A stretch of DNA of 64,000 bases from Staphylococcus phage Twort. The notes beneath the pieces are model-generated. The model made no database searches. It saw nothing but the letters and a program-made list of their open reading frames with translations, and was not told the origin of the DNA. The position numbers and the translations under genes are program-made. Where the stretch lies: sequence record NC_007021.1. The stretch is one strand, 5' to 3'. This document shows positions 16,290-58,577 of this stretch, piece after piece; positions within the stretch are counted from its first letter, which is position 1; each line of letters starts with the position of its first letter.

Positions 16290-16440
16290 TTATCACTAAT
16301 AAGATACTAAATATATGTACCATTCGTTGTATGGGAATTTAAGCCTTTGGAGTATCATACAAACTTGAGTAGAGTAAATGAATATAGTAATTTACTCAAA
16401 AGGGGATACGTTGAAAAAGGAATATAATTTATAAAGTTTT
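16290..16440 (+). ncRNA. candidate omega RNA / right-end region of the TnpB element
   Basis: Perfect hairpin gagtaaat-gaatatagta-atttactc at about 16368-16398 immediately 3' of tnpB; omega RNAs normally overlap the tnpB 3' end and right end. Confidence 0.4.
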
Positions 16441-37573: not shown

Positions 37574-38014
37574 CTATTCTTTAATTAATTTATCCCCTTC
37601 TTGGATGTAATCAATGTCTTTAAGTCCGTCTATCTTTTTCCAAGCAACCATCTTATTGTTTTTTATATAGTAACTCATGGTAATATTATTGTATTTTAAA
37701 TCTCCCGTAACATACATAGTTACAGATTCTACTTTATACTTATTAATAGCAGTTCCCTCAGCTCCTATAAAATCAGAACCATTCTCTCTTTCTTTTTTAT
37801 ATTCTTCCATATCCAACCAATACTCTTTACCTGATACTGTAATTAATCTAACAATTTTTTCCTTACTTAATATCTCTATATCATTCATATCTATTTCTTT
37901 AGGAAAATTACTTCTTTTGATTCTCTTTATACGAACCATTAAACTTTCACTAACCATGAAAAGTAGAAGGAATGCCAGACCAATAAACGCAATACCCATT
38001 AATATATCATACAT
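37574..38014 (-). CDS. membrane-anchored protein (N-terminal TM)
   Basis: MYDILMGIAFIGLAFLLLFMVS. Confidence 0.5.
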   Translation of the reverse strand: MYDILMGIAFIGLAFLLLFMVSESLMVRIKRIKRSNFPKEIDMNDIEILSKEKIVRLITVSGKEYWLDMEEYKKERENGSDFIGAEGTAINKYKVESVTMYVTGDLKYNNITMSYYIKNNKMVAWKKIDGLKDIDYIQEGDKLIKE

Positions 38015-38022
38015 AAAATCAC

Positions 38023-38706
38023 CTATAAGTGTCCGATAGAAATTGGCTCTACCGCTTTTACTAAGTTGTTCTCTATACTTTTTACAGTAGTACTAACATT
38101 ATTAATTACAGTTACAGCTTCTTTATCTGGTGAATATAGTTTAATAGTAATTAAATGCGTTTTCTGATTATAGTATAGTACTAATTTATAATTACAGTCT
38201 AGATGAAGTATAACTGATTCAAAAACATCACCATTAATTTGTTTTACTTCTTTTGATAATAAATTAACCTGTACAGTTGTTTTTGGTATGTATGACTCTA
38301 CATATGAGCTACATAACCCAATAATACCTGGTAGCTTATTTACTTCCCTAGTACCATTTTCAATTTTATCTTTAAGTTCAAAGTATTTACTTTTAGCACC
38401 TACATAACATTCTTCTAAGAATACTTCTGGATTTTCTACACCTTCTGGAATATCAAAAGAGTACATGATTTCTTGTGAAAATATGATTACAAGTTTATTA
38501 GTTTCCTCAATCATAGTAAATGTTACTGTTAAATCTAAATCTGTATCTTTAATTTTAAAAAGGATACTATGTTCTTCGTCTGATTCAAACTCTGATACTT
38601 TCTTAAAACTACTTTCTTTGTTAAACGTAAAACCATTAGAAGTAAATTCATAACCATTTAAAGTATCCATACTTTCAATAATATCTTTCCATTTTTTTAA
38701 TTCCAT
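38023..38706 (-). CDS. hypothetical protein (227 aa)
   Basis: ORF with RBS aaggagat. Confidence 0.5.
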   Translation of the reverse strand: MELKKWKDIIESMDTLNGYEFTSNGFTFNKESSFKKVSEFESDEEHSILFKIKDTDLDLTVTFTMIEETNKLVIIFSQEIMYSFDIPEGVENPEVFLEECYVGAKSKYFELKDKIENGTREVNKLPGIIGLCSSYVESYIPKTTVQVNLLSKEVKQINGDVFESVILHLDCNYKLVLYYNQKTHLITIKLYSPDKEAVTVINNVSTTVKSIENNLVKAVEPISIGHL

Positions 38707-38798
38707 ATTTAAATATCTCCTTTATATAGTTTCTGGTACCGACATTAATGTCGGGAGCAAATATTATATATCCTATTTATTTTTTTCAACATACTTAA

Positions 38799-39026
38799 TT
38801 ATACACGTTTATTATCTACATTAGTAAATCCAATAGCCAACCCATCAAAAGCAATAAACAGCACTGCCCTCCATTGTTCTGATGTTAATTTAGGGTAACT
38901 TTTATGTACCCTATTAAGAAAATCATTTAGTTCTTTCTGTGTCTTAAAAGTTATTCCTTCAATAGGAATCGTAGTACCCTGTAAACACTCAAGATTAATA
39001 TTCACCTTTAATTTACCTCCTAGCAT
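38799..39026 (-). CDS. hypothetical protein (75 aa)
   Basis: ORF. Confidence 0.45.
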   Translation of the reverse strand: MLGGKLKVNINLECLQGTTIPIEGITFKTQKELNDFLNRVHKSYPKLTSEQWRAVLFIAFDGLAIGFTNVDNKRV

Positions 39027-40365: not shown

Positions 40366-40785
40366 TCTCATTTCCTCCTAATTGATTATATACTTAGTAT
40401 AAAGGATAATAACTAGATTGTCAACTATAAAAATAAAAAAAGTACCTACAAATTAATGTAGATACTTATACTATAATTATAGAATTTTAGGTGTGTACAT
40501 GAAGGATAACTCATGTAGGGTTTAGTAGTAAGATACAAAGCGTCTACCACGCAACATACAACACCTCTTGTATGTTATTATATACGTACTGGAAGAAGTT
40601 ACCAGTAGGAACCTACAGTCATATACAAAGCCTATGCCAGGCAATATATGGTATATCTCATATATCAGGTATAATACCTTATAATGATTATCTTGTAACC
40701 TATAACTTCTGATAATTAGGGTTTTATAATAATTACTGTATAAGTAACTATAACCTATAAGTTTTTTGCATGCTAGGGGCTATAA

Positions 40786-40857
40786 TGGACTCTGTAGGGA
40801 TTGAACCTACACTCCAACGCTTATGAGGCGTTTGCTTTACCATTAAGCTAAGAGTCC
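40786..40857 (-). tRNA. tRNA-Met/Ile2 (anticodon CAU)
   Basis: Minus-strand read GGACTCTTAGCTTAATGGTAAAGCAAACGCCTCATAAGCGTTGGAGTGTAGGTTCAATCCCTACAGAGTCCA: 7-bp acceptor, D-arm, anticodon loop CTCATAA, T-loop GGTTCAATCC. Confidence 0.8.
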
Positions 40858-54873: not shown

Positions 54874-55422
54874 ATGTTAAGGAGGAGTAAAACAATGAAC
54901 TACAAATATTTAATTAAGTTAGTAGAAAAAGGAATTGCTAAAGAGATAGAAGGGGATGGTTACAAGAATTATTATGTTACAAAAAATGGGCGTGTTTATA
55001 GTTGCTCAAAGAAAAAGGGAAATAGCAAAGTAACAAAATTAACACCTCAAAAAAATAATAAAGGTTACTTGCGTATCCAAATTAATGGTAGAAGTAAACT
55101 TTTACATAGGTTAGTTGCTTTGTATTTTGTACCTAATATTAATAATTACGAAACAGTAGACCATATTGATGGTAATAAATTAAATAACAATCATACAAAT
55201 TTACAATGGTGTACTAATTTAGAAAACATGAGGAATGCTAGAAAAAATGGACTATTTAAAGATACCCCATTAAGAAAATTAAGTAATAAAGAAGTAGTAG
55301 ATATAAGGCATAGGTACAAAAATGAGGACATCACTCACCATGAACTTGCTGATGAGTATAATGTAAGCAGAGCAACAATAGGTGCAATAATTAGGAGACA
55401 ATTATATAAAAATATACAATAA
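54874..55422 (+). CDS. free-standing HNH homing endonuclease with C-terminal HTH, opposite strand to neighbours
   Basis: GYLRIQINGRSKLLHRLVALYFVPN...ETVDHIDGNKLNNNHTNLQW HNH_3-type motif; C-terminal RATIGAIIRRQ HTH. Confidence 0.7.
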   Translation: MLRRSKTMNYKYLIKLVEKGIAKEIEGDGYKNYYVTKNGRVYSCSKKKGNSKVTKLTPQKNNKGYLRIQINGRSKLLHRLVALYFVPNINNYETVDHIDGNKLNNNHTNLQWCTNLENMRNARKNGLFKDTPLRKLSNKEVVDIRHRYKNEDITHHELADEYNVSRATIGAIIRRQLYKNIQ

Positions 55423-57455: not shown

Positions 57456-57629
57456 TCTTTTAATGTATTAATAACTTGAGACATTTGTTTATTATCTAGG
57501 TCTTCTAGTTTTGTTTCTGGTAATAGTTCTAGCTTTTCCCATAATTCTTCTTTAGTAGATAGCTTATCTTCTAGTAATGCTTTACCTACTAAACTTTGAG
57601 TAAAATAAATTTGTTTTTGACTAGCCATA
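57456..57629 (-). CDS. small protein (~57 aa), not in ORF track
   Basis: Minus-strand ORF MASQKQIYFTQSLVGKALLEDK... Confidence 0.3.
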
Positions 57630-57752
57630 AATAATCATTTCCTTTTTATTAAAATATAGTCATTGCGTACTATCATAAAATCAGGAGGGTTTTAATGAAA
57701 GAAAGGAGAAATATATGAAAAAATTCTTCCGCAATGACTATAATATTGTAAG

Positions 57753-58288
57753 TTAATACAATTAAATATCATAACATAGCCGTTCTCACACGGAACTATG
57801 TATAAAGAAATATTGTTAGGTTACCTAGTTCTAGTAAGTTCTATACGGGAGCGACCTCGTAGTCCACTTACAGAAGCATAAGCAATATAGGGGTAGGGTC
57901 TATTACCTACCAACGTTCACACGGTACGAAGAATTAGCCTAACCAAATGTATATATAATATTGATTGTTTATCTTTATTGTAGATTTGTGCTACTTGTAC
58001 TGGTATCATTCATTATCAAACATGTTTCCATGCTCCAACTACAAAAGTGCTTTAGTAGTGTACTTATATAGGAAACCACTAAATTCCCATATAAGGATTA
58101 CACCTGACGGATACCATACCTTATATCCCTTTATACATAGAGCTGAACAATCCACCTCGTATTCAATAATACTCAAAGGGTATTTCCTAAGTTCTCACGT
58201 AGGTTTAATACCCTGTGACATTTTCACACTTTACAGCCACCACACTGTTAAACTTCAGTCACTATGTTATGATATTTAATTGTATTAA
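57753..58288. repeat. 27-bp perfect inverted repeat flanking a ~480-bp GC-elevated non-coding element
   Basis: ttaatacaattaaatatcataacatag at 57753-57779; exact reverse complement at 58262-58288. Confidence 0.8.
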
Positions 58289-58577
58289 GTTGTAAGTATA
58301 ATATAACACACTTCTAAAACTCAGTCAAGAAAAATCAAAAACTTTTTATAATTTTTTTATACTAGGGTAAAAAAGTAGTAAAAAGACCTAGTTGTGTAAG
58401 GGGTCATTTATTTATATATATATATATATAAAGTATAACATAAATAAAATCCTGTGTCAAGTTAATTTAATAATTTTTTTGAATTTATTAAATTTTGTTT
58501 TTCTAGTTTGTAAGGGTAACCACATTTGTGATGTCCTTATTTCTTATTTTAACTTAAATAGGTAAAGTCAGAACTTT

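Follow-up and report, generated by a model that had tools for sequence, protein, structure and literature searches.

Introduction

Of the RNAs of bacteria and phages that have no known function, ROOL and GOLLD rank with the largest, and both were shown in 2025 to form RNA-only cages larger than the ribosome. The ROOL class (RF03087; Weinberg et al., 2017, PMC5737381) has been studied by cryogenic electron microscopy (cryo-EM) by Kretsch et al. (2025; PMC12286853) and by Ling et al. (2025), whose work is cited here as summarised in PMC12515178. ROOL was found to form an octameric cage joined by intermolecular bridges, among them B4, in which L8 and J6/8 form a kissing interaction, and B6, a symmetric contact of L18 with L18, with a disordered linker located inside the cage (PMC12286853). 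This report concerns a 64-kb stretch of the genome of Staphylococcus phage Twort (NC_007021.1), hereafter the window, whose positions serve as coordinates throughout, and in particular an element on its minus strand at 57753..58288, which is very probably the gene for a structured non-coding RNA of the ROOL class, about 536 nucleotides (nt) long.

Long non-coding RNAs (lncRNAs) of staphylococcal Kayviruses have already been compared with GOLLD and ROOL; only their position and abundance were considered (PMC9241854, PMC7698491). In phage K, a lncRNA at 37679-38832 with its own early promoter yielded the “highest number of reads” (PMC9241854). In vB_SauM-515A1, the 525-nt lncRNA2 accounts for 8.4-9% of all counts, is transcribed from an early promoter and rises 45-fold by 30 min (PMC7698491). 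No paper was found in the literature that shows ROOL homology of the Kayvirus lncRNA or mentions Twort, and the supplement text of PMC12286853 mentions neither Staphylococcus nor Twort.

The Twort locus first drew attention as an inverted repeat. Its arms (57750-57779 and 58262-58291) are 30 nt long, 97% complementary and separated by a 482-nt spacer, and their central 27 nt (57753-57779 and 58262-58288) form the perfect 27-bp repeat reported in the first-pass annotation. That annotation had also described an interior richer in G+C than its surroundings, as is indeed the case (0.32-0.36 inside the repeat vs. 0.19-0.27 in either flank), and had offered four readings: a miniature mobile element, an invertible segment, a leader-peptide attenuator, or a large structured RNA with a closing stem of 27 bp. 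This last reading was correct as far as it went, although it specified neither the strand (minus) nor the family (ROOL). The window contains the 27-mer at these two sites and nowhere else, up to three mismatches being tolerated, and such a repeat was seen in none of 100 dinucleotide-preserving shuffles.

Homology to the ROOL Class

In an E-value scan of positions 57500-58500 against Rfam, RF03087 was the sole significant match, located on the minus strand with 60.4 bits (E = 2.1e-11) and spanning model positions 1-574; measured between the outermost bases of the closing stem, the feature is 536 nt long. The corresponding elements of other phages, scanned alone, behaved alike. ROOL was the sole match for the phage K element (621-nt stretch, 36.5 bits, E = 8.8e-6), which aligned to the model over its full length, P1 and the 5′ domain included, and the sole significant match for that of SEP1 (88.2 bits, E = 2.1e-18, full length), where the other five matches lay at E ≥ 1.9. 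A scan of the whole window at curated gathering thresholds returned nothing at the element, and the family has gone unannotated because the scores of Twort, K and SEP1 all lie under the gathering score of 99.1 bits, which is an operational cut-off and not a biological feature. E-value scans of wider stretches (2.2 kb of K and 1.8 kb of vB_SpsM-DH2, the closest complete relative of Twort in this region) gave no ROOL match, probably owing to speed filters, since K did score over the 621-nt stretch.

The Twort positions aligned to the best-conserved parts of the ROOL consensus comprise GUACAAGUAGC, GUGAAnGUU with the GGUAAU hairpin, a GAAA-capped hairpin, the loop region GGUCGCUCC and the terminal hairpin; motifs align to upper-case consensus nucleotides in Twort, K and SEP1. 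The 3′ strand of P1 in the Rfam model falls exactly on the left repeat copy. The model put the 5′ strand of P1 about 70 nt inside the Twort element, within the 5′ domain described below, its true partner being the right repeat copy.

A DNA pattern derived from two shared core motifs, GUAnnAGUAGC...GUGAAAGUU, recovered at least 120 loci from IMG/VR. All 13 non-staphylococcal loci tested are canonical ROOLs situated beside tRNA arrays, with Rfam scores of 159-357 bits, and three loci of the staphylococcal type fail the Rfam threshold. The core pattern of the staphylococcal family matched 71 times in 185,579 representative bacterial genomes, mostly in Bacteroidota, and nhmmer found no homologue among these 71 matches. 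Comparison by blastn of a canonical ROOL and of one ROOL-bearing contig with isolated phage genomes identified no host lineage. As a side observation, short partial matches to OLE RNA (53 bits, model positions ~436-595) occur among the tRNA arrays by canonical ROOLs on three IMG/VR contigs and may represent tRNA-like or partial similarity.

A Covarying Multi-Domain Structure

RNAalifold predicted 143 pairs from a 13-sequence alignment, and compensatory changes occur in 86 of these. A structure curated to 133 pairs (19 helices) was compared with slid controls in 13 relatives of 68-92% identity: 97.4% of its cells are paired (36-42% in the controls), 87 of the 133 pairs are changed on both sides (16-26 in the controls) and the covariation score is 0.564 (0.06-0.09 in the controls), values matched by none of 500 shuffles. 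Where the Rfam alignment is reliable, 31 pairs in Twort are identical between the helices found de novo and those implied by Rfam. The element has the multi-domain, covariation-backed structure by which ROOL is recognized. Three more helices of the model escaped RNAalifold through slight shifts in the alignment and were confirmed separately, sequence by sequence: P6, the helix enclosing the linker and the hairpin that follows GUGAAnGUU.

The closing helix P1 is formed by the right repeat copy as 5′ arm (58262..58288, minus strand) and the left copy as 3′ arm (57753..57779). Ten of 25 pairs are changed on both sides across the 13 relatives, and 99.4% of cells are paired. Changes proceed by compensation, U-A being replaced by C-G and A-U by G-C at several positions; the helix is mostly re-written in Silviavirus and wholly re-written in Baoshanvirus, where UAUUAGUGUAUUGAAAGCACUUGUUAUAAU is paired with GUUAUAACAGGUGCUUUGAUUACAUUAGUA in phiSA_BS2. 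Relatives also show G-U wobbles in P1, which on the opposite strand would turn into A-C mismatches; it is therefore the minus-strand RNA that pairs. Folding energy cannot assign the strand, because either strand folds much more stably than shuffles do (z = -6.2 and -7.8); the strand is established by the Rfam matches, these wobbles and a conserved promoter described below.

Downstream of the P1 5′ arm, the 5′ domain (58135..58261) consists of a hairpin followed by a multi-stem junction with two to three hairpins, a topology equal to that of ROOL P2/P3. It contains RNAalifold helices 2-8, most of them with compensatory changes, and aligns to the ROOL model in K and SEP1. The equivalent of ROOL P8 is a long hairpin (58063..58095) with the loop AGUG at 58077-58080; of its 14 predicted pairs (12 when AGUG is left unpaired), 11 are changed on both sides. 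The J6/8 segment CACU follows at 58057..58060. The core motif GUACAAGUAGC (57990..58000), which aligns to the Rfam consensus GUAcaAGUAGC, is nearly invariant across the staphylococcal family. It precedes a variable A-rich linker (57924..57985), 62 nt long in Twort and 54-77 nt in relatives, which is 70-81% A+U, unconserved in sequence and the counterpart of the disordered ROOL linker (PMC12286853). The linker is enclosed by a covarying helix, GCAY paired with RUGU, in which C-G has become U-A in at least three lineages.

The 3′ part of the element resumes with the core GUGUGAACGUU (57912-57922), followed by the hairpin GGUAGG-UAAUAGAC-CCUACC, the two together occupying 57892..57922 and aligning to GUGAAAgUUgg.agGUAAuCAAUCC of the consensus. 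The stem of this hairpin occurs as GGUAGG/CCUACC, AUUAAC/GUUAAU or ACUAAU/GUUAGU, and has been fully swapped by compensation in K-type phages, Silviavirus and Baoshanvirus. A P17/P18-type hairpin (57834..57871) carries the loop region GGUCGCUCC, with the loop at 57850-57854, which is the same as the consensus GGUcGCUCC; its stems covary (helices 16 and 17), and the three-pair junction helix that closes the region has two alternative pairings in Twort and K. The terminal hairpin GUUCCGUGUGAGAACGG (57780..57796), in the position of P19, stands directly before the P1 3′ arm and shows compensatory changes in two of three pairs. The two CACACGG-type motifs pointed out in the first-pass annotation are genuine and, read on the minus strand, belong to these conserved RNA elements: ccgttctcacacggaac (57780-57796) is the final hairpin ahead of the 3′ arm of the closing stem, and cgttcacacggtacg (57914-57928) overlaps the invariant core GUGUGAAnGUU (57912-57922). 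No mapping of the ROOL pseudoknots P10 and P13 onto the Twort element was obtained.

The coding potential of the element is low, as had been suspected. Apart from a 104-aa plus-strand frame, no open reading frame (ORF) of 60 aa or more overlaps it, and the other interior ORFs reach 30-45 aa only. The 104-aa frame crosses columns with paired compensatory changes as well as the length-variable linker.

Contact Sites and Possible Cage Assembly

In all 18 sequences compared, the loop of the P8-equivalent hairpin is complementary to 4 nt starting 2 nt past the base of the same hairpin, that is, to the J6/8 segment, the counterpart of ROOL bridge B4. The two sites vary together: AGUG/CACU in Twort, GGUG/CACC in CF5 and Silviavirus, and AGCG/CGCU in the rest, with a G-U intermediate, GGUG/CACU, in DH2. 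Among these 18 family members, 100% of L8/J6-8 cells are paired as opposed to 6-73% in slid controls. When 12 canonical ROOLs were checked by eye, 11 had a P8 loop complementary to the bases immediately 3′ of P8, with differing sequences. The loop cannot reach the foot of its own 12-bp stem, and an intermolecular pairing is therefore the natural reading; we infer that L8 and J6/8 pair between copies in the staphylococcal family.

The second contact site is L18. The L18 loop region of Twort, GGUCGCUCC, is identical to the ROOL consensus, and among the matches listed the unique IMG/VR loci of canonical type have the L18 loop UCGCU in 38 cases and UAGCU in 14. In relatives of Twort, L18 contains a self-complementary core, either AGCU or UAGCUA, or else UUGCAA, the form of the SscM-1 lineage. 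UUGCAA differs by a double change that preserves the palindrome, which is suggestive and not conclusive because it represents one event only.

In the mechanism that these features suggest, the two repeat copies pair as P1, which would bring together the 5′ and 3′ ends of the RNA. Between them, the chain folds into the 5′ multi-stem domain, a central domain with P5, P6, P8 and P9, an A-rich linker held within a long-range helix, and a 3′ domain with P17/P18 and P19. Copies of the RNA, presumably made from early in infection and reaching very high levels, to judge by the Kayvirus orthologue, may then bind one another to form a closed homo-oligomer, which in the ROOLs of known structure is an octameric cage. 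Pairing of the P8 loop AGUG with CACU in J6/8 of a neighbour, and of L18 loop with L18 loop, would hold the copies together.

Weighing the Assignment

Several observations weigh against the identification as a ROOL. The scores of Twort, K and SEP1 all fall short of the gathering score, and the composition-bias terms of the three are sizeable (13.8-39.9 bits). Stem P7 and one hairpin of the 5′ domain (P3) are absent from the staphylococcal family, P7 being not always conserved in ROOL either (PMC12286853). The L18 loop of Twort, UCGCU, contains a palindrome of just 2 nt. The sole tRNA gene in the window lies 17 kb from the element and none adjoins it; adjacency to tRNA genes is a tendency of the ROOL class and not a requirement, and location in a phage is common to both. 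No terminator-like site was found downstream of the Twort RNA to mark its 3′ end. The reverse tests were weak as well: a sequence profile (nhmmer) of the staphylococcal family gave modest or weak matches to canonical-type ROOL loci, and a covariance model of staphylococcal P5-P9 placed only one of 10 canonical ROOLs correctly (22 bits, E ~0.003). This model is too narrow (effective sequence number 1.32) to be fit as a reciprocal test. Finally, transcription in Twort, the boundaries of the mature RNA and its cage assembly are inferred, the last from homology and the conserved contact sites. Given the weak reverse tests, the family is treated as a divergent ROOL lineage and not as a typical member.

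The shortfall of the Rfam scores, their large bias terms and the bare detection of canonical ROOLs by the reciprocal covariance model and profile could also mean that the element belongs to a separate RNA class that resembles ROOL by chance or convergence, the matches arising from A+U-rich composition and a few short motifs. This is very improbable. Three divergent members match ROOL and no other family, over the full length of the model (E-values between 9e-6 and 2e-18); the de novo RNAalifold helices agree with the ones that the model implies, down to 31 exact pairs in Twort; and the order of motifs, the position of the linker, the sequence of L18 and the layout of L8 and J6/8 all fit ROOL.

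Conservation and Genomic Context

A sensitive blastn search among phage records retrieved the element from 326 of them, all belonging to staphylococcal or Mammaliicoccus Twortvirinae, in which at least five named genera carry it at the same site. Full-length matches outside the pair formed by Twort and DH2 are 68-74% identical. Thirteen representatives and 11 further copies from IMG/VR (one a duplicate) each have a closing stem of 26-30 bp and a length of 526-584 nt. K and the Silviaviruses contain an additional insertion of ~36 nt with a small hairpin in the 3′ domain (alignment columns 437-472), which is absent from Twort, Sepunavirus, Sciuriunavirus and Baoshanvirus.

The setting is likewise conserved. 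In the inspected records, the element lies on the same strand as its neighbours, 3′ of a phrog_1257 zinc-ribbon gene and 5′ of a small gene and the holin gene, and the endolysin gene comes next after the holin gene wherever the inspected locus extends that far. Romulus is an exception, a tRNA-Ser gene and a transposase gene coming after the element. Genes for tRNAs follow the RNA in K, 184DA, PSU5 and Romulus, and none was seen near the element in DH2. In the annotated records inspected, the element occupies an unannotated gap or lies beneath tiny “hypothetical protein” calls. Two or three small coding sequences annotated as “hypothetical” or “membrane protein” are superimposed on the RNA gene in 184DA, V1SA19, MSShimriz1, BE25, Twillingate, Quidividi and Terranova, and are likely mis-annotations.

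In Twort, all neighbouring genes are on the minus strand, and the locus region is 99.7% identical to the Twort lysis-gene record of 1998 (Y07739). The upstream neighbour (58802-58578) codes for a 74-aa zinc-ribbon protein (phrog_1257, E = 3e-24) and represents the upstream gene that is conserved among relatives. Downstream are a gene for a 59-aa protein (57628-57449, phrog_987), the holin gene (57376-56819; PF04531 Phage_holin_1, E = 1.7e-24) and the endolysin gene (56856-55450; CHAP, Amidase_2 and SH3_5 domains). Just beyond the 3′ end of the latter, a free-standing plus-strand ORF (54874-55422) encodes an HNH endonuclease (HNH_3 and NUMOD4); in phage K and SEP1, an HNH endonuclease gene is instead found inside the span of a split endolysin gene.

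Promoter, Probable Transcript and Position ahead of the Lysis Genes

A sigma-70-type promoter, TTGACT followed after 17 nt by a TG-extended TATATT, is located at 58300..58328 on the minus strand (10 of 12 matches, TG present), its -10 element ending 11 nt ahead of the closing stem. The motif TTGACA-17-TGnTATAnT stands just before the stem in DH2, SscM-1, 184DA, EW13, EW3, PSU5 and K, with the -10 element ending 10-11 nt before it; in Silviaviruses the distance is 5 nt, in CF5 the motif stands about 30 nt farther from the stem, and SEP1/C1C show no evident copy of it there. The GenBank record of Romulus carries an independent promoter annotation at the equivalent site. A second promoter-like site, TTGACA-17-TATACT with TG (11 of 12 matches), occurs at 58432-58460 on the minus strand, about 130 nt upstream of the promoter of the RNA and adjoining a (TA)n run at 58412-58433; in the Romulus record, two tandem promoters are annotated in the equivalent gap.

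The phage K element (KF766114, 38009-38591, minus strand) falls within the published lncRNA of that phage and corresponds to the 525-nt lncRNA2 of vB_SauM-515A1. In K-type relatives, the RNA is followed by an A+U-rich hairpin and a U-run.

Two plus-strand micro-ORFs in the flank of the element were the basis of the leader-peptide proposal. They do exist, at 57695-57718 (MKERRNI, then stop) and 57715-57756 (MKKFFRNDYNIVS, then stop), on the strand opposite to that of all adjacent genes. A 1-nt indel puts the second out of frame in phage DH2 (92% identity over the element), where the first begins with TTG. The strong Shine-Dalgarno sequences ascribed to them are the complement of two CU-rich, CCUCC-like motifs 3′ of the RNA: UUUCUCCUUUCUUUC and CCCUCCUG, which resemble anti-Shine-Dalgarno sequences and lie on the RNA strand just past the closing stem (57682-57714). 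CCUCC- or CUCCU-like motifs occur 3′ of the element in every inspected relative except Silviaviruses, and one of them sits in the loop of the terminator-like hairpin in K-type phages.

These observations bear on whether the element is a cis-acting leader or attenuator that controls the genes for the 59-aa protein, holin and endolysin, being co-transcribed with them, with either the element or the plus-strand micro-ORFs as the attenuator. All relatives carry the element 5′ of the lysis cassette and in the same orientation, Twort has no terminator-like site after it, in V1SA19 the stem is directly followed by the ribosome-binding site for the next gene, and the CU-rich motifs recur after the RNA in all inspected relatives but the Silviaviruses. 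However, three tRNA genes separate the RNA from the lysis genes in Kayviruses, where it is a discrete 525-nt species with an early promoter whereas holin and endolysin are expressed last; its size, architecture and intermolecular contact sites are those of the trans-acting ROOL; and the micro-ORFs are on the opposite strand and not conserved, so that the leader-peptide attenuator falls away. A cis-acting element of this kind is highly improbable overall, and cis-regulation of the lysis genes by the element is unlikely. A ROOL-type RNA with its own promoter remains the preferred reading.

DNA-Element Readings of the Repeat Arms

Perfect 27-bp terminal inverted repeats invite the idea of a miniature inverted-repeat transposable element (MITE) between the lysis module and the upstream genes, and in Twort a 7-nt sequence (TTGTAAG on the plus strand, or CTTACAA as read on that of the RNA) is even found in direct repetition at 57746-57752 and 58290-58296. 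This flanking repeat is probably due to chance, because it is partial in DH2 and absent from other relatives. No conserved target-site duplication and no further copy of the terminus in the window could be found. The element is single-copy there, and all staphylococcal Twortvirinae phages retrieved have it at one syntenic site; the 71 core-pattern matches in representative bacterial genomes include no homologue; and the arms change by compensation instead of being kept as a transposase-binding sequence. A mobile element, as had been proposed, is thus hardly conceivable. Equally remote is an invertible DNA segment flipped at the ~480-bp-spaced long perfect repeats by a site-specific recombinase, since no recombinase gene is adjacent (the neighbours encode a zinc-ribbon protein, a 59-aa protein and a holin), the orientation is the same in all 18 aligned relatives, the promoter lies outside and not inside the segment, and the arms coevolve with a G-U wobble asymmetry that fits one RNA strand and reflects selection on RNA pairing, up to replacement of the helix sequence in Baoshanvirus.

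Other Possible Non-Coding RNAs in the Window

Two further regions of the window are worth recording. A second large non-coding RNA may be encoded on the minus strand at 40440-40785, an ORF-free stretch that lies directly 3′ of a tRNA-Met gene (40786-40857, minus strand) and has a terminator-like hairpin and U-run at its end. Its position is that of Kayvirus “lncRNA1” (570 nt, ~2% of reads), and at 40600-40670 it shares ~80% identity with a portion of the lncRNA1 region of phage K; it matches no Rfam family and its folding z-score is just -2.8. A RAGATH-18 RNA (RF03064) is found on the plus strand at 16344-16422, with 67.6 bits against a gathering score of 44.9.

Significance

The Twort element is a previously unannotated, divergent ROOL-class RNA gene that is conserved across staphylococcal Twortvirinae. 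The finding means that the therapeutic phages of staphylococci that have been studied best (Twort, K and relatives, 326 records) carry a divergent ROOL, and it gives an identity to Kayvirus “lncRNA2,” which makes up 8-9% of all reads in infection, so the function of ROOL becomes testable in a tractable lytic phage-host pair. Natural compensatory variants are available at both contact sites, the L8-J6/8 pairing and the L18 palindromes. Twort also illustrates that a ROOL can persist without adjoining tRNA genes.

Twort has no tRNA gene near the element, yet the gene stays 5′ of the holin and endolysin genes in the phages retrieved. It is on these grounds that we put forward, as a doubtful conjecture, that the staphylococcal ROOL-type RNA might be a cage former that works in trans and independently of neighbouring tRNAs, for instance through sequestration or encapsulation of some component, of host or phage origin, with an effect on late gene expression or the timing of lysis. 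If this were so, genetic dissection in phage K or Twort with S. aureus would provide the first function for ROOL or GOLLD.

Comparison with Known Systems

MITEs share with the element terminal inverted repeats and the lack of an ORF. Unlike it, they are multi-copy and display target-site duplications, conserved termini and presence/absence polymorphism, none of which was seen for the element. The phi29 pRNA is likewise phage-encoded and forms a homo-oligomer by intermolecular loop-loop pairing with covarying partners; it differs in size (~120-174 nt), in forming a ring on the packaging motor and in its role in DNA packaging, and has no sequence or structural similarity to the Twort element. 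GOLLD is closer in kind, being a large ornate RNA of phages and prophages that is often found beside tRNAs and forms an RNA-only cage. However, it has another sequence and secondary structure, exceeds 800 nt and assembles as a 14-mer, and the Rfam scans of the element and of the window gave no GOLLD match.

Kayvirus lncRNA2, the lncRNA between gp191 and tRNA-Asp, is the orthologue of the Twort element, with which it shares the genomic slot, the promoter type, the closing stem and the covarying fold. In K, three tRNA genes lie downstream and the RNA is longer (583 nt), and it was published only as a highly transcribed intergenic region, without structure or homology (PMC9241854, PMC7698491).

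From the canonical ROOLs, the staphylococcal family differs in its Rfam scores (36-88 bits vs. the 99.1-bit gathering cut-off), in the length of P1 (27-30 bp vs. 16 bp in the model), in the loss of P7 and of one 5′-domain hairpin, and in the extra ~36-nt insertion of K and the Silviaviruses. Most ROOLs adjoin tRNAs, whereas the elements of Twort and DH2 do not, and the staphylococcal element has a fixed place 5′ of the holin and endolysin genes of strictly lytic myoviruses. The likeness is nevertheless extensive. Both are phage-encoded and similar in size (536 nt in Twort vs. a ROOL average of 581 nt), with a long P1 that joins the two ends and with domains and helices in the same order. Common to both are the motifs GUAnnAGUAGC and GUGAAnGUU+GGUAAU, a GAAA-capped hairpin in the central domain, a variable A-rich linker, the L18 loop region GGUCGCUCC and a covarying complementarity between L8 and J6/8, and the Kayvirus orthologue is, as in ROOL, highly abundant.

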